From an uncultured Thermoleophilia bacterium (GTDB lineage: Bacteria > Actinomycetota > Thermoleophilia > UBA2241), in the NCBI GenBank assembly GCA_963702475.1, contig CAVPCT010000004.1, positions 96,001 through 160,000 on the forward strand: 64,000 bases of DNA, given 5' to 3'. Within the stretch, counting starts at the first letter, position 1. Every line of letters begins with the position of its first letter. Under the pieces are notes generated by a model. That model did no database searches. It worked only from the letters and a program-made list of their open reading frames with translations, and was not told the origin of the DNA. Shown here piece after piece: positions 1-64,000 of this stretch. The position numbers were made by a program, and so were the translations under genes.

Positions 1-610
1 CACCGCCGGCCAGATGCGCTCCATGATGCCGGCCGTCTCCGCGGTGATCTCGGCGGCGCGCGTCAGGAGCCCGTGCCGCGCCGCCTCGTCCTTGAGCGAC
101 GGCACGTTGATCTCCACGTTGAGGACGCCGCCGGCGACGCCGGAGGCGGCCATCTGCACGGCCACGCCCAGGTCGCTGGCCGCGGCCGTGTTGAAGCCGA
201 CGGACACGGTCTCGGCGAGGCGTAGCAGCTTGAGACACGACTCCGCCGTGGCCAGCGGCACGTCGGCGGCGGTACGGATGGCGACCTGGATCTGCGCCGC
301 GCGCGCCGCCTTCTCGTCGTCGGTCTCCTTGGGCATGCGGAACGCGTCCACCACCCCGAGATAGGCGTCGGTATCGCGGTCGACGGCGGCCAAGAGGCCG
401 GCGCGCAGCTTGTCCGCGGCTGCGAGCGAGTCGCGCAGGACGGGCTCGCGTTCCTCGAGCTCCGCCTTGCCGACGCTGAGCTTGCAGACCATGGCCACGA
501 GGCCGGCGGCCATGCCGCCGGCGGCCGCGGCCACGCTGCCGCCGCCGGGGGCGGGCGAGTCGGACGCGAGCTCGGCGGCGAAGCCGGTGAGGGTCAGGTC
601 AGATGAGCAT
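1..610 (-). CDS. Formiminotetrahydrofolate cyclodeaminase/cyclohydrolase family protein (FTCD C-terminal domain); runs off the window edge; 1-nt frameshift near 601
   Basis: Manual translation: MLI/DLTLTGFAAELASDSPAPGGGSVAAAAGGMAAGLVAMVCKLSVGK, with the family PGGGS signature; GGAGGAG RBS upstream of ATG at 610. Not in the ORF track. Confidence 0.85.
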
Positions 611-685
611 GTGCTCCTCCGGGTCTCGATTCGGGTTGACCAGCGGCGCACCGGCACGGGGCCGGGACGGGGGCCGAGTGAGTCG

Positions 686-739
686 TGCCCGGCCGCCCGC
701 GGCGCCGCCCGGCCGGGCGGCGCCGCGGGCGGCCGGGCA
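686..739. repeat. Perfect 54-bp palindrome (27-bp arms, no spacer) just downstream of larA
   Basis: TGCCCGGCCGCCCGCGGCGCCGCCCGG followed directly by its reverse complement. Confidence 0.9.
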
Positions 740-743
740 GCGC

Positions 744-2050
744 TCATCCTACGACGGGCAGACAGTCGCCGCCGTACGGCAGCAGGCCGATCGTGCCACC
801 GGGCTGCAGCTGCAGGGCCCGGTCGACGGCGGCCTGCAGGTCGATGTGGCGCTCGTAGCCCAGCAACTCGCACATCGTCGTCGGACAGGCCGTCGCTCAC
901 CAGCAGGATCGCGGCCTTCTCGCGGATCTTGGCGTTGTCCACGCCCAGATCCGCGGCGATGACGTCGATCTCCCGGTCGCTGGGGTCGGCGGCCTTCACC
1001 AGCTCGATGCCGTGGGCGAACGTCTGCTGCAGCCAGAACCGAAGCCTGGGGTGGTTGTGCTCGAGGCCCTCGGGGCACGGCGAAGCGAACACGATGACGC
1101 CGCCTTCCTTCACCGCGAAGTACGCGGCGATGAGGCCCTTCTCGCCCTGCCACCACTCGATGTCGGCCGGATACGAGCTCACGATGACGATGTCGGCCGG
1201 CTCCGGCACACGGACGCCCCAGGCACGCCGGGACACCTCGACGCCGGCGCGGTGCGCCTCCACGCAGTCCCCCGCGACGATCTCCACGATCTTGTGGTAC
1301 GGGTCCTGAACGACGTTGACGATGAACGCCAGGCCGACGATGCGCGCGACCTCTTCCATACCGCGGCGGCAGGGTGTGTCCACCTCGCCCAGCGGGATCT
1401 CCGGCAGCACGGTGGCCGTGACGTGCGTGGCGGCGGTGGTCGCGAACCCGCAGACGCCCGGCTGGACGATCTTGGCGCCGCCGGCGTACCCGGCGCCGCA
1501 GTGCGGGATGATGTTGCCGAGCCCGATGAGGAGGTCGGCATCCATGGCGGTGCGGTTCACCTGCACGGGGATGGTGTAGCCCTCGCCGGCGCTGATCGCG
1601 CCGAGGTCCACGAGCTGGTCCTCGTCGTTGAAGTCGTGCTGCGAGATGTGCACGCGGCCGAGGGCCTCCTCGCCCACTTTGGCCAGGATCTCGTCGTCGG
1701 TCATCAGCCGATGCGTGCCGGGCGCGGTGAGGATCTCGATGTGGTCGTCGGTCACGCCGGCGGCGTTCAGCTCGTCGAACAGCACCGGCAGGATGCGGTG
1801 GACCGGGGTCGTGCGCGTAGCGTCCTCGACCAGGACGACGACCTTGAGCTTGCCCGCCGCGAGCTCCGCGAGCGGCGGCGTGCCGATGGGGGCGCGGAGC
1901 CGCGCTCGCAGCGTGGCGGCGAAGTCCTCGATCTCCGGCAGCTCCTCCATCTCGCCGGTGAAGACGATGCTGCCGGCCGGGACCTCGGCCGAGACCGTCC
2001 GGCGCTTCGCCGTACGGGAGCTCGATGACGGTGCGTTCGTCCGCGACCAT
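744..2050 (-). CDS. larA: LarA-family nickel-pincer-dependent 2-hydroxyacid racemase/epimerase (frameshifts near 2005 and 870)
   Basis: Joined frames give VVLVEDATRTTP, APGTHR, IIPHCGAGYAGGAKIVQPG, SSYPADI, CPEG and C-terminal GLLPYGGDCLP; TGA at 744-746. Confidence 0.8.
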
Positions 2051-2507: not shown

Positions 2508-3721
2508 CAGTGGACCTCCCCGGCGATGGCGGCTTCGACGGCCTGCATCAGCGGCCGCACCGCATAGTCCTGTCCGTACACCTGGCAGTAGAAGGCGCAC
2601 TTCTGCGACTCGGTGACGCCGGGCCTGCCGTAGTAGATGTCCCAGCAGCCGGGCACGTCCATGCAGGTGTCGGGCAGGACGTGCCCGCCGGCGCGCTGGA
2701 TCGTCGCCAGGTGGCCCATGCGGTCGGCGAGCTCCAGCGTCAGGCTGCTGACCAGGAGCCAGGTGTCCACCGCGAAGCGGCGGCCCTGGAGCTGCTCGGC
2801 GATCTCGCCGATCTGGCGGATGGTGAGGTGCGGGCAGCCGAACATGGCGTACTCGATCGGCCCCGGCGTGCCGGCGAACTGCTCGCGCACGCGCTCGAGG
2901 TCGGCCTGCGTGATCTTCACAGTCGCCTTGGGAGCCTTGCCGCCGAGGGCCGTGTCCACATCCGGGGCCTCGGGAGTGATGCCGGCGATGTGGTACATGG
3001 CGACGGAGCCGGACGTCGCCAACTCGGCGCCGAACTGCACGAAGCCCTCCGGTGTGGCGCGCTTCGTGATGCCGGTGAACACCGGCACCTCGCCGCCCTT
3101 GTACACCTGCGGGTAGGCGTAGCCGAGCAGGTGCCAGTCGAAGTCCTCCTCGACCTTGGCCTCGACCTCCACGACGACCTCGGCCAGGCGGTTCTCGTCG
3201 AGCAGGAACCCGTACTCGGGCACCCGGCCGGTCACGGCCGCGCACAGCGCGCTGATGGACGACTCGCGGTTGCTGCGCGCGCCGAGCACGGAGTTCACGT
3301 ACGGCGTGGCGCTCGACTCCGAGAAGGCGACGATCTCGCCGAAAGCCGGCACGTTCTTCTCGATCTCCGGCGTGCAGCTCAGCGTCATGATTGCGCCGAT
3401 CCTGCGGTACGCAGCGTTGCTCTTCGTCACGTTGTCGAGGCCGAACTGGTCCATCGCCCAGAGGTGGTCGGAGACGTAGTCCAAGTCCATGCTCGGGTTC
3501 GTCGTGGGCGGGACGATGCAGCGCGCGCCGCCGTCCACCAGCTTGGTCACGAAGTAGATGTCGCCCTGCTGGGCGCTGGCCGCGACATGCGCCCGGGTGA
3601 TGGGCACCATGCGCTTGGCGTAGAAGGCGCGGCCGGTTCCGACCTGCACCTTCATGGCGAGGGCCATGCCCTCCCCGTACTTGCCGTCGAGCATCTCCTG
3701 CTCGAAGGTCGTCAACTCCAT
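2507..3721 (-). CDS. Aconitase X large (catalytic) subunit, DUF521
   Basis: MELTTFEQEMLDGKYG, TTNP, SCTP, FSESSA, NSVLGARSNRES, GCPH, DTCM. Confidence 0.9.
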   Translation of the reverse strand: MELTTFEQEMLDGKYGEGMALAMKVQVGTGRAFYAKRMVPITRAHVAASAQQGDIYFVTKLVDGGARCIVPPTTNPSMDLDYVSDHLWAMDQFGLDNVTKSNAAYRRIGAIMTLSCTPEIEKNVPAFGEIVAFSESSATPYVNSVLGARSNRESSISALCAAVTGRVPEYGFLLDENRLAEVVVEVEAKVEEDFDWHLLGYAYPQVYKGGEVPVFTGITKRATPEGFVQFGAELATSGSVAMYHIAGITPEAPDVDTALGGKAPKATVKITQADLERVREQFAGTPGPIEYAMFGCPHLTIRQIGEIAEQLQGRRFAVDTWLLVSSLTLELADRMGHLATIQRAGGHVLPDTCMDVPGCWDIYYGRPGVTESQKCAFYCQVYGQDYAVRPLMQAVEAAIAGEVH

Positions 3722-3734: not shown

Positions 3735-4691
3735 TCAGGCGGGAGGGGCGGCCACGTTGCACGGCTTTCCCTCGATGAAGCGCACGGCATTGTCGGTGCA
3801 GGCGGCAGCCAGCCTCGTGCTGGCCTCGCCGGTGTTGAACCCGATGTGGGGGGTGAGGACCACGTTCTCCAGCGTGAAGAAGCCGGCGGCGCTGGGGTCG
3901 GCCAGATCGAAGACGTCCAAGCCGGCGCCGGCGATGCTCCCGCAGGCGAGCGCCTCGTACAGGGCGGCCTGGCGGACAAGACCGGCTCTCGCCGTGTTGA
4001 CGAGCACGCCGTGCCCGGGCATGCGCGCCAGGAGTGGCGCGTCGACCATGTCCCGTGTCTCAGCCGTCAGCGGCGCGTGCAGGCTGACCAGGTCGCTGTC
4101 GGCGAACAGCCGGTTCAGCGGCAGATACGTCGCTCCGGTCTCGGCCACGAGGGCGTCCGAGCGGACGACGTCGTGGGCAAGGATCGTCATGCCGAACGCG
4201 TGACCCAGCGTGGCGACGCGCCGGCCGATGGCGCCGGTGCCGACCACGCCGAGCGTGCTGCCGCACAACTCGCCGCCGCGGAACCGATCCCAGTCGCGCT
4301 CGCGCCTGTCGCGAAAGAAGCGGTCGGCGGCCGCGACCTTGCGCTTGACGGCGAGCATGAGCCCGAGGGCGAGCTCCGCGACGGCGTTGGTGGCGTACTC
4401 GGGCACACGGCAGACGACCACGCCGCGCCGCGCCGCCGTCTCAACGTCCACCGTGTCGACACCCGTAGCCGCCAGAGAGATCATGCGCAGCCGCGGCAGC
4501 CGCTCGAGGGCGGGCGCGTCCATCCGTGCCCAGCAGCACAGCACGACCTCGGCGTCGCCCGCCCGCTCGACCAGCTCGTCGTCGTCGCGAGGAACGCCCT
4601 CGTAGACGCGCACGTCACCGAGTGCCGAGAGACGCGCGAGGTTCTCGTGGCCGAGGTCGAAGTCGTCGAGGACGACGATGCGCATGGGCAC
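3735..4691 (-). CDS. D-isomer-specific 2-hydroxyacid dehydrogenase (glycerate dehydrogenase-like)
   Basis: ATGVDTVD, YATNAVAE, GVVGTGAIG, LHAPLT, NTAR, LDVF, TPHIG. Confidence 0.9.
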   Translation of the reverse strand: MPMRIVVLDDFDLGHENLARLSALGDVRVYEGVPRDDDELVERAGDAEVVLCCWARMDAPALERLPRLRMISLAATGVDTVDVETAARRGVVVCRVPEYATNAVAELALGLMLAVKRKVAAADRFFRDRRERDWDRFRGGELCGSTLGVVGTGAIGRRVATLGHAFGMTILAHDVVRSDALVAETGATYLPLNRLFADSDLVSLHAPLTAETRDMVDAPLLARMPGHGVLVNTARAGLVRQAALYEALACGSIAGAGLDVFDLADPSAAGFFTLENVVLTPHIGFNTGEASTRLAAACTDNAVRFIEGKPCNVAAPPA

Positions 4692-4748
4692 AGCTCCGGA
4701 TCGCGGTGGTGGCGCGGCGCGCCCTGGCGTCGCCGCAGTGCATCGCCC

Positions 4749-4857
4749 ATCATGAACGCGGCGGGGGAGGGGTCAACCGGCGGCCTCTCGCCCGTCCACG
4801 CACGTGGACGGAAAAGGAGCGCGTACCGATTGACGACCGCGCCACGGGGGCTATGCT
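4749..4857. promoter_or_regulatory. Candidate divergent sigma70-type promoters flanking a palindromic operator
   Basis: + strand TTGACG(4830-4835)-N16-TATGCT(4852-4857); - strand TTGACC(4776-4771)-N16-CATGAT(4754-4749); inverted repeat CCGTCCACG-ca-CGTGGACGG at 4792-4811. Confidence 0.55.
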
Positions 4858-4981
4858 GTCCGCAGACCGGCTCCGTGCCTCGGGACCCTGCTCACGGGCC
4901 CCCGCCCGGGCCCCTCGCCGGGGGGTCAGGGCCACGCGGACGCCGCCTATCGCCTTTCCCCTCGCCCCGACTGGAGGACAC

Positions 4982-6397
4982 ATGCCTGCCTATCGCCTGC
5001 GCACCACGGCTCTCGACGAGGAGGGGTGCGCCGCCGTCCACGCGGCGACCGTCGAGATCCTCGAGAAGACCGGCGTGGAGGTGCGGCACGACGGCGCCCT
5101 GCGGCTGCTGAGCGACGCCGGCGCGCAGGTGGACGGCACGCGCGTGCGCATCCCGGCGGCGCTCGTGGACGACGCCCTCGCCGCCGCGCCGCGCACCGTT
5201 ACCATGGCCTCGCGCGGCGAGACCGGCGCGCTCGCGCTGAAGGCCGGTCCCGTCTACTACGGCTCCGGCTCCGACTGCCTCGTCTGTCTGGGGCCGCACA
5301 CCCGCGAACGCCGCATGGTCTCACTCGACGACGTGGAGCAGATGGCCGCTCTCCAGGAGCACCTGCCCAACACCGACTTCGTGATGAGCATGGCGCACCC
5401 GCACGAACTGCCGGCCTCGTTCGCCCCAGCCGCGCAGTTCGCGGCCATGCTGCGCGGCACGTCCAAGCCGCTCATCATGGTGCCGGAGGTGGCCGCGGAC
5501 ATCGACCTGTTCCACGAGATGGCGGCCGTGTGCGGCTCCGCCGGCAGCTGGGCGCTGTACGCCATGCCCACGCCGCCGCTGGTGCACGGCGAGCACTCGG
5601 CGGCACGCCTCATCCGCTGCGCGGAGCTGGGCGTGCCGATGGTGTACGCCTCGGCGACGCTGCAGGGAGCGACCGGGCCCGCGTCGCGCGCCGGGCAGAT
5701 CGTGCAGACCAACGCCGAGATGCTGAGCGGCCTTGTGGTCAGCGAGCTCGCTGTGCCGGGCGCCCCGTTCGTGTACGGCGTCGCCCAGGGCGCCATGAAC
5801 CCGCGCACGGCGCACGTCGTCTACTGCGCGCCGGAGAGCATGGCCGTCCAACAGGCCTCCGCCGACCTGGCCGGCTTTTACGGCCTGCCCACATTCGGCT
5901 ACGGCGGCTGCTCTGACTCGCTCGCGCTCGACGAGCAGTGGGCCTTCGAGGCGGGTATGACGCTGCTCACCGCGGCACAGGCCGGTGTCACCCTGCTGCA
6001 CGACATCGGCTACGTGGCGTCGGGCACGGCCTCGTCCTACGAGACCATGGTCGTGCTGGACGAGCTCGTCGGCTGGGTGAAGGCGTACCTCGACGGCGTG
6101 ACCATCGACCCCGAGGCTCTGGCGCTGGAGGAGATCGACGCCGTGGGCCCGGGCGGGAGTCACCTGTCGCGCAAGTACTCCCGCCGGCACCTGCGCGACT
6201 ACGTAGCGCCACGCCTGATCTCGCAGGACCAGTACGACGCATGGCAGGCACGCGGCGGCGACACCCTGCTCGACCGCACCGCCGAGAGAACACGCGAGCT
6301 GCGTGAGGCGCCGCGGGCGTATGAGCTCGGCGAGGACGCGGCGGCGGCGCTGGACGCGCTGGTGGAGAAAGCGCGGACGGCGGCGCTGGGCAGCTGA
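4982..6397 (+). CDS. MttB-superfamily methyltransferase #1 (non-pyrrolysine)
   Basis: GGAGGA RBS; ILEKTGV, YYGSGSD, GATGPAS.AG, PGAPFVYG, GYGGCSDS..DEQ, LLHDIGY, VGPGGSHL. Confidence 0.92.
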   Translation: MPAYRLRTTALDEEGCAAVHAATVEILEKTGVEVRHDGALRLLSDAGAQVDGTRVRIPAALVDDALAAAPRTVTMASRGETGALALKAGPVYYGSGSDCLVCLGPHTRERRMVSLDDVEQMAALQEHLPNTDFVMSMAHPHELPASFAPAAQFAAMLRGTSKPLIMVPEVAADIDLFHEMAAVCGSAGSWALYAMPTPPLVHGEHSAARLIRCAELGVPMVYASATLQGATGPASRAGQIVQTNAEMLSGLVVSELAVPGAPFVYGVAQGAMNPRTAHVVYCAPESMAVQQASADLAGFYGLPTFGYGGCSDSLALDEQWAFEAGMTLLTAAQAGVTLLHDIGYVASGTASSYETMVVLDELVGWVKAYLDGVTIDPEALALEEIDAVGPGGSHLSRKYSRRHLRDYVAPRLISQDQYDAWQARGGDTLLDRTAERTRELREAPRAYELGEDAAAALDALVEKARTAALGS

Positions 6398-6639
6398 CGG
6401 CGGGCGCCGTACCACCGCACCGACCGTGCCCGCGTCGCGCTCCTCGCGACTGGTTGTATTCTGCAACGAACCGCGAGGAGCCCGCATCGGTGACGATGGG
6501 CTCGGGCGGGAGACAATGCGGCGCGACTGGACGCAGGCCGGAAAGCCGAGCCGGCCCGCTCGGCCCGGGCGGCTGCCGACCGGGCCGAGCGGTCGCGGGC
6601 GGTAGCCGTCTACGCGGCCTGCCGGCGCCCAGGGATGAG

Positions 6640-8067
6640 TCAGGCGAAGGCGCCGGCGCGGATGAGTTCGCGCACCGGGTCGACGTCCACCGGCGGAGGC
6701 GTGCCCGGCACGAGCGGAGGCACGACCTCGCGGATGCGCTCGTAAGCAGCCGCGGTGCCGCAGCCGAGCGGACCGGCGCCGCGGGTGTCGACGGCCTGCG
6801 CCGCGACCAGCAGCTCGACGGCGACGATCGCCTCACCGAGCTCGACCTGCTCGGCCAGCTTGCGGGCAGAGAGCGGCAGATGCGTGGCGTGGTCTTCGAT
6901 GCCCTCGGCGCCCGAGCTGCTTGCGAGAGCGAACGACACCGGCTGCGCGAGTGCGCCGGCCTCCACCGTGAGTGACTCAGCCGTGATGGCGAGGATGCTG
7001 AGGCCAAGGTCGGGGCCGGGCTCGGGCATCAGCCCGGTCGGCAGCCCCGACCAGAGCGAGTCGAGCAGCTTCATGCTTCGCTCGGTCGCGGCGACGAGCA
7101 TGCCGGCGAGGGCGGCGCGCATGTAGTCGAGCGCCGCCGACAGCGCCAGCACCTCGTACACGGAGGCCGACCGGATCACGCATTCGTCGGCGAACACGAC
7201 GGGGTTCACCTGCGCGCAGCGCAGCTCGACCTCGAGCCGCTCGACGGCGTGCTCGAGCGCAGTGCGAGCCGCGGACTGGATCGGCCCCGTGCTGCGGTAC
7301 GTCAGCGGGTCCTGCAGGTTGCGCGCCGCTCCCTCAGCCCACAGGTAGCTGCCGTCCAGCAGCCCGCGCATGCGAGCGAAGGTACGTGCCAGGACGGGAT
7401 CCGGGCGGGCGCGCTCGACCGCGGGGTGCAGCGGAGAGAGGTTGGCGGCGAACCCCTCGAGCGCGAGGGCGCCGCCCACGTCGGCCGCGTCAACGAGGCG
7501 GGCGGCGTCGGCCAGCGCCAGCGCCGCCCGGCCGGTCCCGAAGGCGCTCGTGTTGAACAGGGCGAGGCCCTCACCCGGCGCCAGGTCCGTGCCGCCGAAG
7601 ACCTCGGCCACGAGGTCGGCCATCGGCGGCAGGTCGCTGGCGCCCAGCGAGCCCAGCGAGCGGACCCGCGGCCTCTCATCCTCGTTCAGCGCCTCCACGA
7701 GGCGCTCCGCGAGGACCGGCCGCAGGCAGGTGAAGCCCGCCGCCATCTGGTTGGCGAACACCACCATGGCGGCGCGCACCACGTCGGCCGGCGCCAGCGG
7801 GCCGACGCCGCTGCGCGTCTCCTGGATCTGGCGCCACTCGAAGGCGGCGTCGTCCGCGGCCACCGTGACGCGCTTCTGCACGCCAAGCCCCGTGGTGAGC
7901 CCGTACGTGGGCGTGCCGGCCTCCCACGTGGCGTCGGCGACCGTGCGGGCGCGCCTCATGCGCTCAACGGCTTCGCCGTCGAGCTCGACGCGGGTCCCGC
8001 CGCGCGCGACCGCGACCACGTCGGCGAGCGTGAGGTCCTGCCCCGTGAGGATCACCGCCATCGTCAC
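6640..8067 (-). CDS. Aromatic amino acid lyase superfamily protein lacking the ASG/MIO motif (ergothionase-like amine lyase)
   Basis: YGLTTGLG, GVGP, GSLGASDL (no Gly), GEGLALFN, QDPLTYR, EGIEDH, AAQAVD. Confidence 0.85.
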   Translation of the reverse strand: MTMAVILTGQDLTLADVVAVARGGTRVELDGEAVERMRRARTVADATWEAGTPTYGLTTGLGVQKRVTVAADDAAFEWRQIQETRSGVGPLAPADVVRAAMVVFANQMAAGFTCLRPVLAERLVEALNEDERPRVRSLGSLGASDLPPMADLVAEVFGGTDLAPGEGLALFNTSAFGTGRAALALADAARLVDAADVGGALALEGFAANLSPLHPAVERARPDPVLARTFARMRGLLDGSYLWAEGAARNLQDPLTYRSTGPIQSAARTALEHAVERLEVELRCAQVNPVVFADECVIRSASVYEVLALSAALDYMRAALAGMLVAATERSMKLLDSLWSGLPTGLMPEPGPDLGLSILAITAESLTVEAGALAQPVSFALASSSGAEGIEDHATHLPLSARKLAEQVELGEAIVAVELLVAAQAVDTRGAGPLGCGTAAAYERIREVVPPLVPGTPPPVDVDPVRELIRAGAFA

Positions 8068-8310
8068 TCCCTTCGCATCGCCGCCGAGGCCTCTCTACCC
8101 GCGGGTCTGCCCCGCCACGGCGTCCTCCTCGCCCACTCCGAGCACGTCGCGACAGTATCGCACGCCCTCCTCCAACGCGGCCTCCGCGGCGGCGAGAGCT
8201 GTGCCCATGTCAGCGAAGGGGATATCGGGAACGCTGAGGCGGAGCAGCACGGTCACTGCCGCCGGGTCGTGTGCGGCGGGGGAGGGGCTCGCGCCCGCGC
8301 CCGCCGACCG

Positions 8311-9726: not shown

Positions 9727-9798
9727 GGGGGTCCTTTCGGTCGGCGGCGCCGAGCGGCGCGGGAGCGCCGCAGAGGCGCCGGCGGGGGAGGGGGCACC

Positions 9799-9842
9799 GG
9801 CCGGGGGGAGGGAGCCGTAGTACGCGCTCCCTCCCCCCGGCC
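9799..9842. terminator. 17-bp GC-rich stem-loop downstream of SBP gene (terminator or mRNA stabiliser)
   Basis: GGCCGGGGGGAGGGAGC-N10-GCTCCCTCCCCCCGGCC. Confidence 0.6.
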
Positions 9843-55999: not shown

Positions 56000-56964
56000 C
56001 GCAGGCCCGTCCGCAGGCGCGGGCTGATGAGGATCGTGAGGATGTCCGCGCCCAGGTTGAGGAGCACGTAGACGGCGGCGATGAGCAGCACGAGCGCCTG
56101 CACCACCGGCATGTCGCGGTTGGCCACCGCGTCAACGAGCCCCGTCCCGATGCCGGGGAAGCCGAACAGGTACTCCACGGTGACGATGCCGCCGGCCAGC
56201 CAGGCGATGTTGATGGCGATCACCTGGATAGTCGGGATGATGGCGTTGGGAAGGGCGTGGTGCCACAGCACCCGCGACTCCTTGAGGCCCTTGAGGCGCG
56301 CCATCATGACGTACTCGCTCTCGAGCACCTCGATGGTCGAGGCGCGCAGCATGCGACTCACGTACGGGATCACCGCCAGGATCAGAGTGACCACCGGGAG
56401 GATGAACAGGTCCATCTGGCCGCTGAGCGGCGCCCGCGAGTCGACGTTCGACACCGACGGCAGCCAGTTGAACACGGCCGTCGCGAAGATGAGCACCAGG
56501 ATGATGCCGATCACGAACTCGGGCAGCGACACCAGCGTGAGATTGAAGATGTTCATGCCGTTGTCGAACTTCGAGTCTCGGTACACCGCGCTGAACGCCC
56601 CGATGACGATCGAGATGGGGATGCTGAAGAGCGCCGCCAGCGACACCAGGATGAACGAGTTGATGACGCGCTGCTTCAGGAGGTCGGTGACCTTGGCCTG
56701 GCCGCCCACCAGGGACTTGCCGAGGTCCCCTTTCACCACGCTGCCCAGCCAGCTCGTGTACTGCGACAGCATCGGCTTGTCGAGGCCGAGCTCCTTGCGC
56801 AGCGCCTCGTAGCGGACCTTGTCGGCGGAGTCCTTGCCGAGGATGGCCTTGGCGGCGTCGCCGGGCAGCGCCTGCGTGGCGGCGAAGACCACGACGCTCA
56901 CGAGGAACAGCGTGAGCAGGCCCAGGCCGAGGCGGATGAGCAGGAGCTTGAGGAGGGGCGGCAC
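55996..56964 (-). CDS. Peptide/nickel-type ABC permease (DppB-like)
   Basis: LPGDAA, LGLDKP..QY, EYVMMARLKGL, VEYLFGFPGIG. Confidence 0.92.
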   Translation of the reverse strand: MPPLLKLLLIRLGLGLLTLFLVSVVVFAATQALPGDAAKAILGKDSADKVRYEALRKELGLDKPMLSQYTSWLGSVVKGDLGKSLVGGQAKVTDLLKQRVINSFILVSLAALFSIPISIVIGAFSAVYRDSKFDNGMNIFNLTLVSLPEFVIGIILVLIFATAVFNWLPSVSNVDSRAPLSGQMDLFILPVVTLILAVIPYVSRMLRASTIEVLESEYVMMARLKGLKESRVLWHHALPNAIIPTIQVIAINIAWLAGGIVTVEYLFGFPGIGTGLVDAVANRDMPVVQALVLLIAAVYVLLNLGADILTILISPRLRTGLR

Positions 56965-56987
56965 GCAGGCGGCGGGTCAGCCCGGAC

Positions 56988-57023
56988 GGCGGGCGCTCCG
57001 GCCAAGAGGCCGGAGCGCCCGCC
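56988..57023. terminator. 16-bp stem-loop between SBP and permease genes
   Basis: GGCGGGCGCTCCGGCC-aaga-GGCCGGAGCGCCCGCC. Confidence 0.6.
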
Positions 57024-57053
57024 CGCACCGGGCAGGACGATCAAAGGAGTGGA

Positions 57054-58718
57054 TCACGCGAACCAGCCGAGGCGGTAGCGCGCGTTGCTCGCGCAGGAAC
57101 CGAGTCCCGAGTAGTCGGCCAGCATGCCCATGACCGTGGCGGCCATCGCGTCCACCTGGTTGTCGAAGGCGTAGATGATGTAGCGCGCCCTCGTTGTACT
57201 CGATGGTCGCGGCCTCGGTGATCAGTTCGTTGCGCTTGGCGTCGTCCACCGTCTTCATGGCCTCGTTGACGAGGTCCATGTACTTCTGGTTGGTCGGAGC
57301 CCAGTGGGTCTCGTCGTAGAGGGCGCCCGGCATGGTGCCCATGCCGGTCTGAGCGAGGTAGCCACGCGTGCCCCAGTTGTCCATGGCGAAGCCCCACTTG
57401 AGGTACTGGTCGCCCCAGAACACGTCGCCGGTGACGTTGTCGACCTTCACCGTGACGCCGGCGGCCTGCGCCTGCTGCGCGAACACCGTGGCGGCGGCGG
57501 GGGCGTTGTTGCTGACCGACGTGGAGGTCATGAGCTTGACGGTCATGTTCTCCTGGCCGGCCTGCTTGAGCAGCGACATGGCCTGCTCGATGTCCTGCTC
57601 GCGCTGCGGCAGGTCCTTGGGGTAGCCGGGGTCGAACGGGCCGTACATGTCGTTGCCGAGCCACTGCAGGCCGTCGGCGCCCTGGGCGATCATCTCGGGG
57701 CGGTTGACGAGGAGGCGGAACGCCTGGCGCACGCGCACGTCGTCGAACGGCTTGACGTCCACGTTCATGGTGAACGGGATCCAGGAGCCGGTCTTGGCCT
57801 CGAGGAGCTTGTGGCCGGCGCCCTCGGCGATCTGGCGCTGCGCGCCGGGGATCATGTTCACGTAATCCACGGCGCCGCCGAGCAGGGCGTTCATCTGCGC
57901 GGTGGTGTCGGCGAACTCGATGATCGACAGCTGGTCGACGTAGGGGCCGCCGTCCTGGCGCCAGTAGTTCTCGTTCTTGACGAAGACGCACTGCACGCCC
58001 GGCTGGAAGTCGCTCGGGCTGGGCGAGCTTGAAGGGGCCGGTGCCGATGGCGCCCTCGCCACCCTTGGGGTCGTAGCCGACGGGGACGACGGCGGCGCTG
58101 TAGGTGGCTAGCGCCTCCGGGAAGATGGCGTTGGTCTCCGTCGAGGTTGAACTGCACCGTGAGGTCGTCGATCTTCTTGGTGCCGCCCGGCGCGAGGCCC
58201 TTGAGCTGCGCGGCCGCAAGGCCCGGGCTCTTGGGGTCCATGATGCGTTCGAAGCTGTAGACCACGGCGTCGGCGTTGACCGGCGAGCCGTCGTGGAAGG
58301 TGAGGCCCGACTTGAGCTTGACCGTGTACTGCGTGCCGTCGGCGTTCGGCTCGAGCGACTCGGCCAGCGCCATGCCTAGCACGCCCTCGTTGCTGTACTC
58401 GAGCAGCGAGTCGTACATGTTGAAGCGCATGTCCATGGACTGCATGGTGTACGCGGTGGCGTGCGCGTCCAGGTCCTCCTTGGCCGAGCCCTGGCCGGCG
58501 GCGACACGCAGGTGGCCGCCCATGTTGGGCGTGCCGGCCGCGGCCGAACCGCTGGCGGACGGGCTGGCGCTGGAGCCGGACTCCTCGCTGGAGCCGCAGG
58601 CTGCCGTGGTCGAACCTAGTGCCGCGACCGCGCCGACGGCTGCGGCACCCTGCAGCACCTGGCGCCTGGTCAGCTGTTTGGCGAAGACTCCCCGCTTCTC
58701 GTCATCTCGTGTGCTCAT
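57054..58718 (-). CDS. ABC substrate-binding protein, family 5, Tat-lipoprotein (frameshifts near 58140, 58020, 57185)
   Basis: LTRRQVLQG...AAC; TFHDGSP, IGTGPF, PFDDVRVRQA, YDETHW; end rebuilt as NARYRLGWFA*. Confidence 0.88.
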
Positions 58719-59187: not shown

Positions 59188-60597
59188 TCAGTCCGGCGGC
59201 CCGGAGCCGCCGGCCACGATGGCGTCGAGCCCCGCGAGCTGACTGCCCGCCAGGTCGAACGCGCGCGGCTCCGCACGGAGGTGCGCGGTGCGGGCGCGCA
59301 CCTTGTCCAGCAGCGTCAGGGAGCCCTGGGCTCGCCAGCGCTGGTACCCGGCGTCGTCGAACAACTCGCTCCTCCAGTACTCGCGGTGGTGCCGCCTGGT
59401 GTACTTCGTCCCCAGGTGGTTGCCGCCCGGCCCCGCCGAGGCGATCTCCTGGACGGCGAGCGCCTCGTCGTCGAGCGGCACGTCGCGCAGGAAGGCCTTG
59501 GCGTACCCGGCGAGCTCGTCCCCAAGGACGAGCGCCTCGAAGGCGGCCGACATGCCGTTCTCCAGGCCGCCGAAGCCGTGCAGCAGCGTCGCCCGGGAGA
59601 GCCCGCCCAGGATCGTCGTGAGGGCGACCTCCGCCGACCACTGCTGGTCGAGCGCCTTGGAGACGGAGATGCCGGCGTAGGAGTAGCTGGGGAGGCCGTA
59701 GTACCTGGACAGGTCGCAGCCGGCCTGCAGCGCCAGGTGGAGGTCCGGCGTGGTGTACGGATCGGCCGCCGAGCGCATATCCGTGGCGCCGCCCCCGGCC
59801 CCGTAGACGAACGGGGCGCCGGGCCGCACGCGCTGGTGCAGCACCAGCGCGCTGAGGACCTCGGCGTTGGCCACCACGACAGCGGCCGGGATCGAGCATG
59901 GCGCCGTTGAGCCTGCCGACGGCGCCGGACCGCAGATCAACGGTACCTGCGCCTCGGCGCAGGCGACGATCTTGGAGAGGCCGCCGGCGTCGTGCCGCAG
60001 CGGCGGCCCGGGCATGGCGAGCACGGCGATGCTGTCACGCTCGCCACACAGCTCCGCCATGCGCCGGATCTCCGGCACGCAGCGTCCGTCCATCGGGGTC
60101 AGGACCAGCGGCTTGCGCGTGCCCCGCAGCAGAGCCGCGGCATGTGCGAGGTCGAACGCCTCGGCCGGCGCGTCGTGGCAGGAGACGACCATCATCACGA
60201 AGTCCACCCGCGGCAGCCGCTCACACAGCGCCGCCATCTCCTCGAGGTCGGTGAGCCGGGCCGGCCGCCGCTCGCGGGTGTCCGGGTCCAGCACGTACGG
60301 GCAGCCTTGGCCGTTGCCGAAGTACATGTCGCCTGGGCGGAGTGCGAGGGGCGGCGCCTGACCGCCTCGCGACCGCAGGGTCCACTCGCGAGGCGCACTC
60401 CGCAGCGCAGCCTCGACGAGCTCGCCATCGAGGTACACTCTCTCTCCCTCGACGCGTGCGCCCGCCTCCGCGTAGAGCCTCAGCGCAGTCGCGTGCTGCA
60501 GTACGTCGACGCCCACCTCCGCCAGCACGGTCAGAGTGGCCTCGTGGAGACGGGCGCAGTCGCCGGGACCGAGCAGCGAAAGGGTAGGAGCGGGCAC
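59188..60597 (-). CDS. MttB-superfamily methyltransferase #8 (non-pyrrolysine; close paralog of #2)
   Basis: RLHEATL, YFGNGQG, AGSTAP, PGAPFVYGAGGG, SYAGISVSK..DQQW, GPGGNHL. Confidence 0.92.
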   Translation of the reverse strand: MPAPTLSLLGPGDCARLHEATLTVLAEVGVDVLQHATALRLYAEAGARVEGERVYLDGELVEAALRSAPREWTLRSRGGQAPPLALRPGDMYFGNGQGCPYVLDPDTRERRPARLTDLEEMAALCERLPRVDFVMMVVSCHDAPAEAFDLAHAAALLRGTRKPLVLTPMDGRCVPEIRRMAELCGERDSIAVLAMPGPPLRHDAGGLSKIVACAEAQVPLICGPAPSAGSTAPCSIPAAVVVANAEVLSALVLHQRVRPGAPFVYGAGGGATDMRSAADPYTTPDLHLALQAGCDLSRYYGLPSYSYAGISVSKALDQQWSAEVALTTILGGLSRATLLHGFGGLENGMSAAFEALVLGDELAGYAKAFLRDVPLDDEALAVQEIASAGPGGNHLGTKYTRRHHREYWRSELFDDAGYQRWRAQGSLTLLDKVRARTAHLRAEPRAFDLAGSQLAGLDAIVAGGSGPPD

Positions 60598-60612
60598 GCT
60601 CGGTCTCGTGCT

Positions 60613-62647
60613 TCAGACCGGGGCGGCGGCGCGGACGAGCTCGACGCGGACGCCCACGTCACGCAGCGGCGGAAAGCCGCTTACCGGGTCGGGTTCGCCC
60701 GCCGACGTCAGGAGATTCACGTTCGCCTCGCTCCAGCCGTGCACGGCGCGAAGGGTGCCGGATGTGATGTCGCCTGGCGCGACGACGCGCACCGGCAGGT
60801 CGAGGGCCCCGGTCCGCGAGGTCACGCGGACGATGTCACCGCTCGCCAGGCCGAGGCCGCGAGCGTCGCTGGGGTGCATCTCGAGGTCCGGTCCGGGCGC
60901 GACGTCGCGCAGGCGTGCGATGGTGCGGGACTGGCTGTTCAGGAGCGCGACGTTGCGACCGCCCGCAAGGAGCACCAGCGGGTACGCCGGGTCGGGCGAC
61001 TCGAGGCGGGCCGGGCGCCGGTAAACAGGCAGTTCGTCGTGCCCGAGGTCGCGCAGGTAGCGCGACGTGAGCTCGAGCCTGCCCGACGGAGTGGCAAGAC
61101 GGGCGCCGGGCGTGGCCTCGTACCGCACGCCCTCCGGGTGCTCGCGAAGCTGCTCGAGCGTCAGTCCCGTCGGCTCGAGCAGCCAGCGGTCCAGGGCGCA
61201 CTCGTCCTCCCAGGGGAAGAACCGACCCGCCCCGAGGCGCACCGCGAGATCACGCCAGAACTCGTACTCGTCCTGAACGCCGGGGATGGAGAGCGCGGGC
61301 GCGGTCAGCGTGAGCAGCTGGTACTTGAGGTGCACGTGCAACTCCGTCCGCTCGAGGAAGGAGGCCGCCGGCAAGACGTAGTCGGCCAGCGCGGCGGTGT
61401 CCGTCATGAACAGGTCGCGCACCACCAGGAGATCCAGCGACGCGAGAGCGCGGGTCACCCGCGCGGCGTCGGGGTGGGCCAGGACCGGGTTGGCGCCCGT
61501 CACAATGAGCGCGCGCAGCGGGTAGGGATCGCCCTCGAGCATGGCCCCGAGCGCCGTGGGTGTGTGGCAGTCGTGGCAGATGTCGTACAGCACGGGGAAC
61601 GCGTCGGCGCCGAGTGGCCCTAGGTGCCGCAGCGGGACCTCGTCGTACAGCGTCAGGTCGCGGAGCGGGGGGAGAGGGCAGTCGGACGCCGCCCTCCACT
61701 CCGACCGAGCCGAGCAGCGAGTCCAGGACGGCGAGGGTCCGGACGGTGCCGACGCCGTTGCCGTGATGCTCCAGTCCGAGTCCGGCGTAGGAGGCCACAT
61801 GCGGCGCGGCGCCGGCCACCACGGCCGCCACATCGCGGACCATCGTGGCCGGTACGCCGGTCTCCTCCTCCACGAGCTCCGGCGTGAAGCTCTCCGCGTA
61901 CGCGGCCGCGGCGCGAAAGCCGATCGTCCGGCGCTCGACGGCAGCACGGTCCACGGCTCCCGTGGCGATGAGCTCGCGTATGAGCCCCCAGGCCAGGGCT
62001 CCGTCCGTGCCGGGCCGCACGGGCACGTGGATGTCCGCCCGGCGCGCGATCGCTGAGCGCCGGGGGTCGACCACCACCAGCGAAGCCCCGTTGCGCCGCG
62101 CCGCCCTGATGTACTGCATCATGGTCGGGTGCGAGTGCGGCGGGTCAGCCGCCCAAAGCACGATGCACCGCGCGTGCTCGAAATCCGGCACCGGCCAGGC
62201 GCCGAGCACGAGCCGGTAGGCGATGAAACGCGTCGCCCAGCACACCGCGTCGACACACAGGTAGTTGGGCGTACCGACGGCGTGAGCGAAGCGCCGCGCG
62301 ATCGCCTCCTGCTGGCCGAAGCCCAAGGCCTCGCCCTTCCAGATGCCCAGGCTGCGGGCCCCGTGCCGGTCGCGGACCGCGGCGACGCGCTCGGCGATCT
62401 CGTCCAGCGCCTCGCCGAGCTCGATCTCCCGCCAGCCGGCCTTCGTGCGCTTGAGCGGCCGGAGCAGGCGGTCGGGGTGGTGGACCAGGTCACCGGCCGC
62501 GCGGGCCTTGACGCACACGTGCCCCCGGCTCCAGAGGTGGTCGGGGTCGCCCGCGACAGCGACCACCCGCCCGTCGCGCACGGTCACGTCGATGCCGCAG
62601 CGGTCATCGCACATGCGGCAGAGCGTCTTCACGACCCGCTCGCCCAT
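60613..62647 (-). CDS. Cytoplasmic Mo/W-bisPGD enzyme (DMSO reductase superfamily, acetylene-hydratase-like), frameshift near 61690
   Basis: CRMCDDRC...GHVCVK [4Fe-4S] motif, GTPNYLCVDAVC, VVDPRRS, RPGTDGAL / DLFMTDTA.LADYVLPAASFLE, TPSGRLEL, MHPSDA, HGW; no Tat signal. Confidence 0.9.
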
Positions 62648-62692
62648 CGGGTCCTCCAGCGGTCGAGGTCAAGACGTGACACCGTTCACGGA

Positions 62693-62728
62693 GGGCCGGG
62701 CGCCCGAAGAGATCGGAGCGCCCGGCCC
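62693..62728. terminator. Stem-loop downstream of SBP, related in sequence to 56988-57023
   Basis: GGGCCGGGCGCCCGA-agaga-TCGGAGCGCCCGGCCC. Confidence 0.55.
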
Positions 62729-62755
62729 AAGGCTTTCAGCTAGCCGCCGGGCGGC

Positions 62756-64000
62756 TCAGACGAAGTAGACCGTGCGGTACCGCGCGTTGTTGGCGGACAT
62801 CCCGATGCCGGAGAAGTCGGCCAGAGCGCCGGCGACCTTGGGGCTGTAGGAGTCCGCGATCTTCTCGAAGGAATAGATCAGGTAGCCGCCGTCGTTGTAC
62901 TCCATGGTGGAGGCTTCGGTGATGAGCTCGTTGCGCTTGGCATCGTCGGTGGTCCGGAACGCCTCGTCGACGAGCTTCATGTAGTCGTCGCGTGTGCTCG
63001 CCCAGTGCGTCTCGTCGTACAGAGCGCCGGGCACGGTGCCCATGGCGGCCTGCGCCAGGTAACCACGGGTGCCCCACTGGTCCATGGCGAACGGCCACTT
63101 GAGGTACTGGTCGCCCCAGAACACGTCGCCGGTGACGTTGTCGACTTTGACGGTGATGCCGGCGCCCTCGGCCTGCTTGGCGAACACCGTAGCCACCGCC
63201 GGCGCCGAGCTGGCGACGGCGGTCGACGTGCTGAGCTTGATGGTCATGCCGTCCTGCCCGGCCTGCTTGAGCAGCGACTTGGCCTCCTCCAGGTCCTGCT
63301 GGCGCTGGGGCAGGTCGGAGGGGTAACCGGGGTCGAAGCGGCCGTACATGTCGTTGCCGATGACCGCCATGCCGTCCACGGCCTGGTCGATGATCTGCTG
63401 GCGATCTGCGACAAGGCGCATGGCCTGCCGAACACGCACGTCATCGAACGGCTTGGTGAGCACGTTCATCGTGATGGGGATCCACAGGCCGGTCTCGGCC
63501 TCCAGCAGCTGCATGCCGGCCCCTTCGGCGATCTTCATCTGGGCGCCGGGGATCATGTTGCAGTACTCCACGGCGCCGCCGAGCAGGGCGTTCATCTGCG
63601 CGGAGTTGTCGGCGAACTCGATGATGGAGAGCTGGTCGACGTACGGGCCCTCGCCCCAGTAGTTCTCGTTGCGAGCCATGACGCACTGCACGCCGGGCTG
63701 GAAGTCGGCGGGGGCCGCGAGCTTGAACGGGCCGGTGCCGATGACGCCCTCGCCTCCCTTGGGGTTGTAGCCGACGGGGACGATGGTGGCCGAGTATGCA
63801 GAGAGCGCCTCGGGGAAGATCGAGTTCGGCTCCTCGAGGACGAACTGCACCGTGAGGTCGTCGACCTTCTTGGTCCCGCCCGGCTTGAGGCCCTTCAACT
63901 GCGTGGCCGCGAGGCCCGGATTCTTGGGGTCGAGGATGCGCTCGAAGCTGTACACAACGGCATCGGCGTTCACGGGCGAGCCGTCGTGGAACACGAGGTC
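62756..64000 (-). CDS. ABC substrate-binding protein, family 5 (5' end outside window; close paralog of 57054-58718)
   Basis: FHDGSPVNADAVVYSFERI, IGTGPF, PFDDVRVRQA, VDNVTGDVFWGDQYLKW, YDETHW. Confidence 0.92.
   Translation of the reverse strand, partial: DLVFHDGSPVNADAVVYSFERILDPKNPGLAATQLKGLKPGGTKKVDDLTVQFVLEEPNSIFPEALSAYSATIVPVGYNPKGGEGVIGTGPFKLAAPADFQPGVQCVMARNENYWGEGPYVDQLSIIEFADNSAQMNALLGGAVEYCNMIPGAQMKIAEGAGMQLLEAETGLWIPITMNVLTKPFDDVRVRQAMRLVADRQQIIDQAVDGMAVIGNDMYGRFDPGYPSDLPQRQQDLEEAKSLLKQAGQDGMTIKLSTSTAVASSAPAVATVFAKQAEGAGITVKVDNVTGDVFWGDQYLKWPFAMDQWGTRGYLAQAAMGTVPGALYDETHWASTRDDYMKLVDEAFRTTDDAKRNELITEASTMEYNDGGYLIYSFEKIADSYSPKVAGALADFSGIGMSANNARYRTVYFV

Follow-up and report, generated by a model that had tools for sequence, protein, structure and literature searches.

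The stretch of DNA analysed here, hereafter the window, comprises 64 kb (G000:C4:96001-160000) of a metagenome-assembled genome (MAG) from an uncultured soil or sediment actinobacterium. This MAG (G000, the source genome) has 4.3 Mb in 9 contigs, with a completeness of 93.8% and a contamination of 6.5%. In the middle of the window, genes for homologues of the trimethylamine methyltransferase MttB are packed together with genes for histidine utilisation (hut). As far as sequence can tell, this pairing points to a so far undescribed way of using methylated histidines, for example hercynine. An earlier note on the window had listed eight MttBs of the non-pyrrolysine (non-Pyl) type, a corrinoid protein, HutH, HutU, a lyase of the histidine ammonia-lyase (HAL) family without the 4-methylideneimidazole-5-one (MIO) motif, a Mo/W enzyme and HutR-like IclR regulators, among others. 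This gene list proved to be real, and the interpretation built on it was, as a whole, partly supported.

The G+C content of the window is 70%, so that spurious frames crowd the lists of open reading frames. Hence, genes were called from third-position G+C (frame Viterbi), and the called proteins were named with Pfam and NCBIfam profiles. Almost all genes lie on the minus strand. The central feature is a single minus-strand string in the order hutU2, fer4-2-oxoacid:ferredoxin oxidoreductase (OFOR), sucCD, hutH2, mttB5 and mttB4, with intergenic gaps of -16 to 48 nt. HutH2 (27646-29157), located 48 nt upstream of the MttB5-MttB4 pair, is a histidine ammonia-lyase with the MIO motif GASGD that scored 650 and 657 bits with the NCBIfam HutH models (TIGR01225/NF006871, cut-offs 539 and 524). 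It is followed on the map by a succinyl-CoA synthetase (SucD, 29187-30080; SucC, 30083-31288; Pfam), SucC having no other tblastn match in the source genome, and by a four-subunit OFOR (gamma, beta, alpha and delta-ferredoxin, 31292-34313; Pfam). The urocanate hydratase HutU2 (34316-35963; Pfam, NCBIfam) is read in two frames, with a break near 35352. Its C-terminal half alone reached 567 bits with the hutU model (TIGR01228, cut-off 375), against 424 bits with thiourocanate hydratase (NF058530, cut-off 930) and 431 bits with S-methyl-thiourocanate hydratase (cut-off 880); by score, HutU2 is predicted to be a true urocanase. The hutU-fer4-OFOR order is repeated in four related loci (L032, L078, L079 and L085; loci are given by L, genomes by G and contigs by C numbers).

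All four HAL-family genes and both urocanases that tblastn detected in the source genome lie on C4:87-171 kb, among MttB genes. The HAL1 operon is a complete hutU1-hutI-FTCD_C-FTCD_N-hutH set with a divergent IclR gene, and it ends 2.6 kb before the window. HAL1 itself (C4:87140-88681) has the sequence TSCCTGVG where the other HALs have Ser-His and thus seems to be without the imidazole-binding His; it scores 696 bits as HutH. On the other side, HAL4 (C4:169717-171228) has Ala-Cys-Gly at the MIO position, reaches 518 bits against the HutH cut-off of 524 and is divergent from MttB167k, a paralogue of MttB5. Lyases of the HAL4 type, including the orthologues in L030-L043, have Ala-Cys-Gly or, in some cases, Ala-Ser-Gly at that position, score slightly below the HutH cut-off and keep a phosphoenolpyruvate carboxykinase (PEPCK) neighbour; the His of their EDH motif is replaced by Phe.

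Four window genes encode proteins with HTH_IclR and IclR_C domains, and one paralogue is divergent from each hut operon. They lie upstream of MttB3 (20472-21272, minus strand; Pfam), divergent from hutU2 (36470-37349, plus strand, in two frames; tblastn, Pfam) and, as two divergent genes, at 51159-52070 (minus) and 52282-53091 (plus; Pfam for both). IclR2 is 52% identical to the IclR protein of the upstream hut operon, and its orthologues (62-66%) sit between HAL4 and MttB5-like genes.

The eight MttB homologues of the window (PF06253) are all non-Pyl; six are intact, MttB5 is frameshifted and MttB6 is fragmentary. The intact genes matched the MTTB profile with 225-325 bits over approximately positions 30-495, while MttB5 matched in two pieces and MttB6 in fragments only. 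No in-frame TAG was present in any of the eight: seven had no stop of any kind and the pieces of MttB6 had only TGA. The source genome also encodes 13 Pyl-type MttBs, and the alignment column that holds their TAG is occupied by T, V, N, I, C or M in the six full-length window copies that were aligned (MttB5 and MttB6 were left out). These six intact genes reached only 271-345 bits with the model for MttB proper (trimeth_pyl/TIGR02369), whose cut-off is 525.

MttB4 (24732-26117, minus strand; Pfam 325 bits) had the glycine betaine methyltransferase MtgB as its best PDB match (9yce/2qne, 2.4e-67). As described for MtgB, glycine betaine is bound by Y97, F356, R312 and H348, with R312 contacting the substrate carboxylate (PMC13080624). 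In the 9yce alignment, R312 and F356 are conserved in MttB4, and the places of Y97 and H348 are taken by Ser and Gln. MttB4 therefore looks like a binder of an acidic betaine, of a type other than the glycine betaine enzyme, and the small or neutral residues at the two changed positions fit an acidic substrate larger than glycine betaine. In a family alignment of 51 paralogues, which is unreliable beyond the MtgB-like clade, the MtgB-type Arg was retained only in MttB3, MttB4 and C4_24586. MttB3 (18681-20393, minus strand; 362 bits over profile positions 31-489), like MttB4 of the MtgB-like clade, formed one clade (support 100 in a quick IQ-TREE search, the source of all groupings given here) with MttB4 and with the 3/4-like MttBs found in hut operons of a sister family. 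MttB5 (26119-27598, minus strand, two frames; Pfam) grouped with MttB167k and the 5-like genes of that sister family. Three orthologues of MttB4 (61% identity) carry one in-frame TAG each (G520:C297:38023-39396, G704:C769:359-1726 and G503:C4:719615-720988), MttB4 itself being non-Pyl.

The remaining MttBs are spread over the window. MttB7 (49383-50822, minus strand; profile matches) adjoins the corrinoid protein and belongs to a clade with MttB84k, itself located beside HAL1. The corrinoid protein (48627-49244, minus strand) has B12-binding_2 and B12-binding domains (Pfam) and reached the cut-off of no named NCBIfam subfamily (MtgC, 192 bits, cut-off 370; pyl_corrinoid, 183 bits, cut-off 215). 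MttB1 (5012-6394, plus strand; Pfam 225 bits; trimeth_pyl 310 bits) has orthologues (72-80% identity) that adjoin MttB4 orthologues in L017, L036, L042, L078, L082, L084 and L086. MttB2 (8314-9723, minus strand; Pfam, NCBIfam) is sister to MttB8 (59191-60612, minus strand; Pfam, NCBIfam) in the tree. MttB6 (44940-46345, minus strand), in three pieces with two TGA codons, is pseudogene-like and looks truly degraded.

About a dozen apparent frameshifts occur across the window, and genes for a family-5 solute-binding protein (SBP5a), a permease, a fused ATPase, MttB5, HutU2, one IclR regulator, SBP5d and the Mo enzyme are split over two to four frames. Four breaks were aligned with close relatives: those of MttB5 (26784), the ATPase (13739) and the permease (12173) with L016, and that of HutU2 (35352) with L031 and L032. 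The window had one extra base each time, and the orthologues of the broken genes in metagenome loci have a single reading frame. Homopolymers were present at only some of the breaks. Since all compared breaks run in the same direction (+1 nt), they suggest insertions in the assembly more than gene decay. Contigs from other samples matched in short pieces 88-99% alike, with the best runs sharing about one-fifth of the sampled words, and represent relatives and not the same strain; two X2 contigs spanning the MttB5 and HutU2 breaks had one gap each, which does not separate assembly error from real mutation. No run of an RNA type was on record among the listed sequencing runs with related sequence.

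We have then compared the neighbourhood of MttB4 in related genomes and metagenomes, a check of hut linkage that the earlier note had proposed, and the linkage was found. Relatives of MttB4 are many in public data (55-98% identity), and the MttB5-MttB4 pair retains HAL, HutU, lyase and IclR neighbours in related contigs and genomes despite rearrangements. An MttB5-like/MttB4-like tandem was present in 32 of the 50 metagenome loci. Fourteen loci had an MttB4 match of 56% or more and extended for 600 nt or more beyond the first MttB5-like gene on its upstream side. In 12 of these, a HAL4-type gene lay upstream (76-93% identity to HAL4 of the source genome), in most cases with an IclR2-like gene in between. 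The two misses were L016, where 2.2 kb remained unmatched, and L026, which ends in a set of MttB7-like, corrinoid protein and IclR genes; the same set runs on to a HAL in L033 and L034. Orthologues of HutU2 (87-92%) were located near MttB4, on its downstream side, in L028, L031 and L032. The 18-kb stretch of L032 unites HAL4, IclR, three MttBs, the lyase, a solute-binding protein, hutU2 and OFOR and ends at the start of a HutH2-type gene. Among 20 species genomes of the window's own family, the roughly 10 kb around the MttB4 orthologue contained a HAL4-type gene in 15 and a HAL of any type in 17, a HutU2-type gene in 5 and the lyase in 4; gene order varies among them.

The decisive evidence for the tie between MttBs and hut genes, at the level of gene arrangement, is the operon of the sister family. 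In all six sister-family genomes examined, a canonical HutH with the Ala-Ser-Gly and Ser-His motifs starts 0-14 nt downstream of an MttB5-like gene, in surroundings that include genes for a corrinoid protein, an Fe-S protein, HutI, FTCD_N, FTCD_C, HutU, a Pterin_bind protein and a GntR/UTRA regulator. The minus-strand order in L111 (G089) is ABC transporter genes, AFOR, MttBx, MttB5-like, HutH, corrinoid protein, a 367-aa Fe-S protein, HutI, FTCD_N, FTCD_C, HutU, the Pterin_bind protein and the GntR/UTRA regulator, with gaps of -56 to 184 nt along the string. The G089 genome (2.7 Mb, 99% complete) has three MttB matches at E<=1e-30, one of the TAG type and two non-Pyl. The latter two are part of the hut operon, which also holds the sole HAL and the sole urocanase of the genome. 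In G582, all three non-Pyl MttBs are likewise inside the operon, and the operons contain two to four MttB paralogues each. The sister-family 5-like genes were sister (support 100) to MttB167k, the neighbour of HAL4, within a clade of equal support that includes MttB5 of the window. A second pairing is common to G469 (L112) and the source genome and consists of an MttB7-clade gene, the corrinoid protein, a HAL1-type gene, IclR and a HutU1-type gene. What the sequences show directly are the identities of the genes, their packing in operons and the conservation of their linkage. The claim that MttBs are tied to histidine-type catabolism was upheld by the 17 of 20 same-family genomes with a nearby HAL and by the HutH-containing MttB operon in six of six sister-family genomes.

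Two further features of these operons are recorded here. Their urocanases have 685-719 aa, with an N-terminal extension (L099:3347-5413, L101:1873-4032 and L111:4424-6481), and score 400-418 bits with hutU (cut-off 375), compared with 643 bits for the second, standard urocanase of G469. The conserved protein of 331-367 aa whose gene precedes hutI and follows that for the corrinoid protein or for an MttB (L097:11420-12415, L111:9351-10454) has only a C-terminal two-cluster ferredoxin domain recognisable, and its homologue in the source genome (48%; C6:4634-5350) lies beside MttBs. It is a candidate corrinoid activation protein.

We read the operon as a pathway for one compound because its MttBs are translationally coupled to HutH and accompanied by their own corrinoid protein, pterin-binding methyltransferase, HutI, FTCD and HutU. 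On this basis, we consider it moderately probable that a methylated histidine is the substrate of these MttB clades, so that the middle of the window would encode corrinoid-dependent use of an N-methylated histidine. The core set would comprise the importer at 9857-15778, MttB3, SBP5b, MttB4, MttB5, HutH2, SucCD, OFOR, HutU2 and the divergent IclR gene. The importer is of the Opp/Dpp type (minus strand; Pfam) and consists of SBP5a (9857-11432, four frames), a permease (11711-12653, two frames), a fused double ATPase (12658-14824, two frames) and an OppC-type permease (14828-15778). Its orthologues follow MttB4/SBP5b in L016, L034, L039, L041, L043, L044, L062 and L065 (77-97%) and are also found in the sister-family loci L098 and L101 (64-83%). 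SBP5b (22937-24541, minus strand; Pfam), whose nearest named relatives are of the NikA/Opp5A type (188 bits, cut-off 600), follows MttB4 orthologues in many loci and has a 66-67% match in the sister-family locus L098.

In the proposed pathway, the family-5 binding protein and the Opp-type ABC transporter would import hercynine, its partly demethylated forms or ring-N-methylhistidines. MttBs of two or three clades (5-like, 3/4-like and 7-like) would move the methyl group or groups to the Co(I) form of the corrinoid protein and from there to tetrahydrofolate (THF). The histidine so formed would be deaminated by the MIO-containing HutH and the product hydrated by HutU. The route may be completed by HutI and the formiminotransferase/cyclodeaminase, whose genes lie shortly before the window, to give glutamate, and the carbon of glutamate would then pass through 2-oxoglutarate:ferredoxin oxidoreductase and succinyl-CoA synthetase with a gain of ATP. 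A second entry is probably provided by the MIO-less lyase (6646-8067), which would split trimethylamine from a betaine; the released trimethylamine could serve the 13 Pyl-type MttBs of the genome. From the gene arrangement we infer which compound is used, how many demethylations it undergoes and in what order the steps follow. Before the MIO enzyme could act, hercynine would have to lose three methyl groups and N-pi- or N-tau-methylhistidine one, and two to four paralogues per operon fit either case. Hercynine is the natural counterpart of the known MttB substrates. The stricter proposal, that the 5-like, 3/4-like and 7-like MttBs together with the corrinoid protein, the Fe-S helper and the pterin-binding methyltransferase remove all methyl groups from a histidine betaine or ring-methylhistidines to supply an ordinary HutH, is plausible, but we would hesitate to call it probable.

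As to the physiology of the host, its genome has 27 corrinoid-protein matches, a carbon monoxide dehydrogenase/acetyl-CoA synthase (CODH/ACS), three pterin-binding proteins and one haem-copper oxidase subunit I. This content points to a cobalamin-dependent methylotroph with a Wood-Ljungdahl module that is not necessarily a strict anaerobe, and the anaerobic lifestyle assumed previously is not supported in a strict sense, given the oxidase subunit encoded alongside CODH/ACS.

Several observations weigh against a methylated histidine as the substrate. According to the overview of characterised enzymes in PMC13080624, non-Pyl MttBs each remove a single methyl from quaternary amines with a permanent charge, and the substrates named there (trimethylamine, glycine betaine, proline betaine, carnitine, gamma-butyrobetaine and phosphocholine) include none derived from histidine. 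Before a MIO lyase could act, hercynine would have to be demethylated completely to histidine, for which no precedent is known. Both pathways feed one-carbon (C1) units into THF, and co-regulation without a shared substrate is therefore possible. The linkage was seen in only one class of Actinomycetota, and among the phylum genomes searched we found no close orthologue of MttB4 or of the sister-family 5-like protein outside this class. No HAL-family gene was near the MttB4 orthologue in 3 of the 20 same-family genomes (L090, L093 and L094), nor was a HAL found in the 10 metagenome loci where MttB4 matched at only 42-49%, in three same-family loci with matches of 46-49% or in five small loci (1.5-kb flanks) of other classes with MttB matches of 33-36%. 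Since related genomes share ancestry, part of the synteny in the window's family may be inherited. The HAL beside the MttB pair in this family is usually of the HAL4 type, and HAL4 keeps its PEPCK neighbour, so that its position could be ancestral and not functional. Finally, both MttB5 and HutU2 are frameshifted in this assembly.

A different possibility is that the flux goes through the MIO-less lyase (minus strand, between MttB1 and MttB2): the enzyme would split a betaine of histidine or of another aromatic compound into trimethylamine and urocanate or an analogue, HutU and the Pyl-type MttBs would take up the products, and the non-Pyl MttBs of the window would serve other substrates. The lyase has GA-SD instead of GASGD, i.e., the Gly of Ala-Ser-Gly is gone, and it fails the HutH tests (255 and 253 bits against cut-offs of 524 and 539). 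It is at most 34% identical to the HALs of the source genome, and its best PDB match is ergothionase (6s7j, 2.5e-45). Orthologues occur in five metagenome loci at 63-68% identity, plus a 52% match ended by the contig end in L044; with three full-length orthologues, the identity is 64-66%. The presence and conservation of an ergothionase-like lyase were thereby corroborated. The set of residues described for the hercynine lyase HBTL is present: Y (TYGLTTGLG), Q and R (LQDPLTYR), N (VNPVVF) and E (GIEDHA). In the HMMER alignment, Ile361 takes the position of Lys384 of the Treponema denticola ergothionase, the orthologues having I, V or L. In the account given in bioRxiv 10.1101/2025.08.13.670108, Lys384 binds the thiolate and is essential in ergothionase, while the hercynine lyase Swoo_3913 has Asn at this position, so that a neutral residue is shared by the window lyase and Swoo_3913.

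The genome also encodes predicted means to consume trimethylamine. Each of the 13 Pyl-type genes has one in-frame TAG, all in the same alignment column and within the motif AG-x-TAG-(G/A/S/T)-D (for example, C3:1126031-1127419, C4:37664-39085 and C4:51594-53003), a tRNA with anticodon CTA (tRNA-Pyl) lies at C3:641046-641118 and the C-terminal domain of PylS at C3:657647-658372 (314.6 bits, cut-off 178). Thirteen such paralogues is an unusually large set for one bacterium; expression of Pyl-type mttB by Actinobacteriota has already been published (PMC10805028). Lyase orthologues also recur in the islands of relatives. Against the lyase route stands the lack of the imidazole-binding His (His117 of Swoo_3913, His83 of HAL): the lyase reads ETRSGVG here, and the position is variable in orthologues (ESRVGQG, ESHVGQG and EHRVGQG). 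Homologues of 49-52% identity in five loci of Gaiellaceae/Thermoleophilia MAGs have no adjoining MttB, one being located about 3 kb upstream in L002. Furthermore, none of the six sister-family hut-MttB loci (L097-L101 and L111) had a match best assigned to the MIO-less lyase, the operon HALs having Ala-Ser-Gly. We therefore hold a flux through the lyase to be rather unlikely as the main explanation of the locus. The ergothionase Lys being replaced, the imidazole His missing and the operon of relatives different, the enzyme is assigned only generically, probably as a trimethylammonia-lyase, with its betaine specificity left general.

The homologues in L002-L005 (approximately positions 4300-11400; 49-51%) end an operon that encodes an Opp-type importer, a zinc-dependent alcohol dehydrogenase, Fae-like, enolase-superfamily, amidohydrolase and cysteine-dioxygenase-like proteins and an aldehyde dehydrogenase. 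This content hints at a sulfur- or aldehyde-bearing betaine as the substrate in these aerobic relatives.

One could also view the window as part of a generic methylated-amine island, in which the substrates of the MttBs are common betaines (those of glycine, proline or hydroxyproline, carnitine-derived betaines or choline derivatives), no methylated histidine is involved and the hut genes are nearby through shared delivery of C1 units to THF or inherited synteny. The source genome has 75 MttB matches, of which about 50 are near full length and about 30 lie on C4:1-235 kb; the window is a slice of this much larger MttB-rich region. Eight MttBs in 64 kb are therefore unremarkable alone, and at such density, also given the 27 corrinoid matches, an MttB neighbour is easily come by. 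The FTCD/FchA-type domains and the pterin-binding methyltransferase use the same folate pool, and the confinement of the linkage to one class would also agree with such an island. The sister-family genomes speak against it. Those with very few MttBs have all their non-Pyl MttBs in the hut operon (two of two in G089, three of three in G582), and the operon has gaps of 0-14 nt to HutH and a corrinoid protein and a pterin-binding methyltransferase of its own. In addition, of the four MtgB residues that bind glycine betaine, two are absent from MttB4. Hence, we regard a generic island as an unlikely explanation of the core genes.

It is nevertheless an apt description of much of the remaining window, and the idea of a single 64-kb supercluster had to be given up, as the window also holds a carnitine/BKACE/CaiB-like module, AcnX, IOR and AFOR in a genome with dozens of other MttBs. 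The carnitine module, AcnX, IOR, the Mo enzyme, MttB1, MttB2, MttB7, MttB8 and the second transporter are part of a larger methylated-amine island, separate from the core pathway. A LarA_N/FTCD_C (FchA-like) fusion runs off the window start (1-1950, minus strand, 650 aa read; Pfam, NCBIfam) and scores 281 bits with the malate-racemase-type LarAH6 model (cut-off 500) and 163 bits with FchA methenyl-THF cyclohydrolase (cut-off 275). What had been called a cyclodeaminase is this protein; the FTCD_C domain is there, but as part of the fusion and with FchA as best named match. Fusions of a LarA-type (nickel-pincer racemase) with an FTCD_C/FchA domain recur as 45-49% homologues beside AcnX or IOR in L080, L082, L086 and L087.

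AcnX follows as a small (2100-2507) and a large subunit (2513-3718; minus strand; Pfam; cis-3-hydroxy-L-proline dehydratase 204 bits, cut-off 700), and recurs downstream of MttB4 orthologues in L020, L030, L080 and L086. A D-isomer-specific 2-hydroxyacid dehydrogenase is encoded at 3738-4691 (minus strand; Pfam) and an AFOR-family tungsten/molybdopterin oxidoreductase at 16074-18047 (minus strand; Pfam). AFOR homologues directly adjoin MttBs in L111 (15717-17642, 4-nt overlap) and L112 (1467-3365, 7-nt gap), and also in L055 and L060. The carnitine-type module (37744-41935, minus strand; Pfam) contains a protein of the 3-hydroxyacyl-CoA-dehydrogenase family (37744-38478), CoA-transferase III (38859-40350 and 40590-41051; two genes or pieces, one of them in pieces) and BKACE (41237-41935). 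Its third-position G+C is lower than in the rest of the window, and it resembles a module for carnitine dehydrogenation and dehydrocarnitine cleavage, a reading for which we presume a likeness to L-carnitine dehydrogenase/BKACE clusters. An IOR-like 2-oxoacid:ferredoxin oxidoreductase (POR_N/TPP_C/Fer4 plus gamma; 42182-44692, minus strand; Pfam) recurs at 80-96% in L034, L036, L042, L082-L084 and L086-L088. The other transport genes, all on the minus strand and named with Pfam, are SBP5c (46639-47610), a second Opp-type importer with a fused ATPase, two permeases and SBP5d in four frames (53211-58544), and SBP5e (62759-64000), which runs off the window.

The Mo/W enzyme (60616-62668, minus strand, two frames; Pfam, PDB), a bis-pyranopterin guanine dinucleotide (bisPGD) protein with an N-terminal 4Fe-4S site, has Molybdop_Fe4S4, Molybdopterin and Molydop_binding as its only domains. 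It had been described as acetylene-hydratase-like; the bisPGD enzyme is real, but its PDB relatives are nearly equal, with FdhA (3.6e-43), thiosulfate reductase of the PhsA type (8.8e-37), acetylene hydratase (2.8e-36) and FdhH (1.2e-35), and neither a specific likeness to acetylene hydratase nor a cysteine-desulfurase module was detected in PDB and Pfam profile searches. The metallopterin-dependent ergothioneine synthase (MES) carries such a module as a fusion. The enzyme is encoded 3 nt from MttB8. An intact paralogue (62% identical; C4:163177-165285), which reaches no NCBIfam cut-off, recurs beside SBP5b and MttB4 orthologues in L065, L077, L081 and L090-L094. The set around this paralogue (C4:160561-168802, L014) includes Fer4_11, Pyr_redox_2, URO-D-like and PrpD-family proteins and MttB167k, recurs in L030, L080, L091 and L092 and may form a complex resembling formate dehydrogenase or else serve MttB systems as a new redox partner.

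The protein at 21760-22809 (plus strand) has an NMT1/SsuA fold (weak Pfam NMT1; SsuA_fam 52.8 bits, cut-off 163.5), and its orthologues (62-82%) lie beside SBP5b in L016, L091 and L092. The earlier note had called it DszB-like; DszB, whose catalytic residues are Cys, His and Arg, is the sole PDB match, but the likeness is weak (E 2.3e-9, 40 bits, residues 41-338). The proposal that the Mo/W enzyme and this protein desulfurise and desulfinate ergothioneine to hercynine, with the whole 64 kb as one supercluster, could draw on that match, on the proximity of the Mo enzyme and its paralogue to MttB genes and on the cysteine-dioxygenase-like gene beside lyase homologues elsewhere, yet it is very improbable, as the Mo enzyme resembles acetylene hydratase no more than it does formate dehydrogenase and thiosulfate reductase, the DszB match is faint, both urocanases of the genome are urocanase-type and not of the thiourocanate type, the lyase has Ile for the ergothionase Lys, and neither the Mo enzyme nor the DszB-like gene was found in the six sister-family hut-MttB loci.

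Compared with known systems, the preferred reading, use of an N-methylated histidine through MttBs, is closest to the MtgB/MtgC/MtgA system of Desulfitobacterium hafniense, with the same trio of TIM-barrel MttB, corrinoid protein and pterin-binding methyltransferase, and with MtgB as the nearest solved structure to MttB4, which keeps its carboxylate Arg and F356. Unlike in that system, MttB4 has Ser and Gln at the other two binding positions, the corrinoid protein of the window stays below the MtgC cut-off, and the genes sit within hut operons with two to four MttB paralogues each. MtpB, MtcB, MtyB and MthB of Eubacterium limosum (proline betaine, carnitine, gamma-butyrobetaine and phosphocholine) likewise belong to the non-Pyl MttB superfamily, and E. 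limosum has a large expansion of MttB paralogues, as does the source genome. Our literature searches returned no report of hut genes beside MttBs of the E. limosum type and, at the level of titles and abstracts, only incidental mentions and no description of an MttB/corrinoid system for ergothioneine, hercynine or methylhistidine. The window lyase shares the MIO-less HAL fold with the ergothionase of T. denticola and the Shewanella lyases (HBTL Swoo_3913, SO_3057 and SO_3299), the Tyr base and the QDPL..R and (I)EDH motifs with ergothionase-type enzymes and the neutral residue for Lys with HBTL; unlike HBTL, it is without the imidazole-binding His and has a cytoplasmic context among MttBs instead of a place beside a periplasmic urocanate-type reductase. 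The five activities of the canonical THF-dependent hut pathway (HutH, HutU, HutI, formiminotransferase and cyclodeaminase) are all encoded in the source genome, and HutH2, HAL1, HutI and the C-terminal half of HutU2 pass the NCBIfam equivalog cut-offs. In contrast to the canonical pathway, this one is duplicated and interleaved with MttBs, a corrinoid protein and a pterin-binding methyltransferase, and its window version is in one gene string with OFOR and succinyl-CoA synthetase.

Hercynine, ergothioneine and methylhistidines are common products of microbes, fungi and animals. To our knowledge, their anoxic fate is barely known, with only ergothionase-type lyases, which release trimethylamine, described so far, and most metagenomic members of the MttB superfamily are without an assigned substrate. 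If the preferred reading is true, it would add a new substrate class to the superfamily, with the first reaction of an MttB-family enzyme on a derivative of histidine. Should the tandem paralogues in addition act in series, this would be the first Pyl-independent demethylation of tertiary and secondary amines to a primary amine. The methyl groups would then go to THF, and to acetyl-CoA or CO2, and not to trimethylamine. The operon of the G089 type (12 genes) offers a compact set for direct expression and assay, and the linkage may provide an annotation rule for many "trimethylamine methyltransferase" calls in Actinomycetota of wetlands, sediments and soils.

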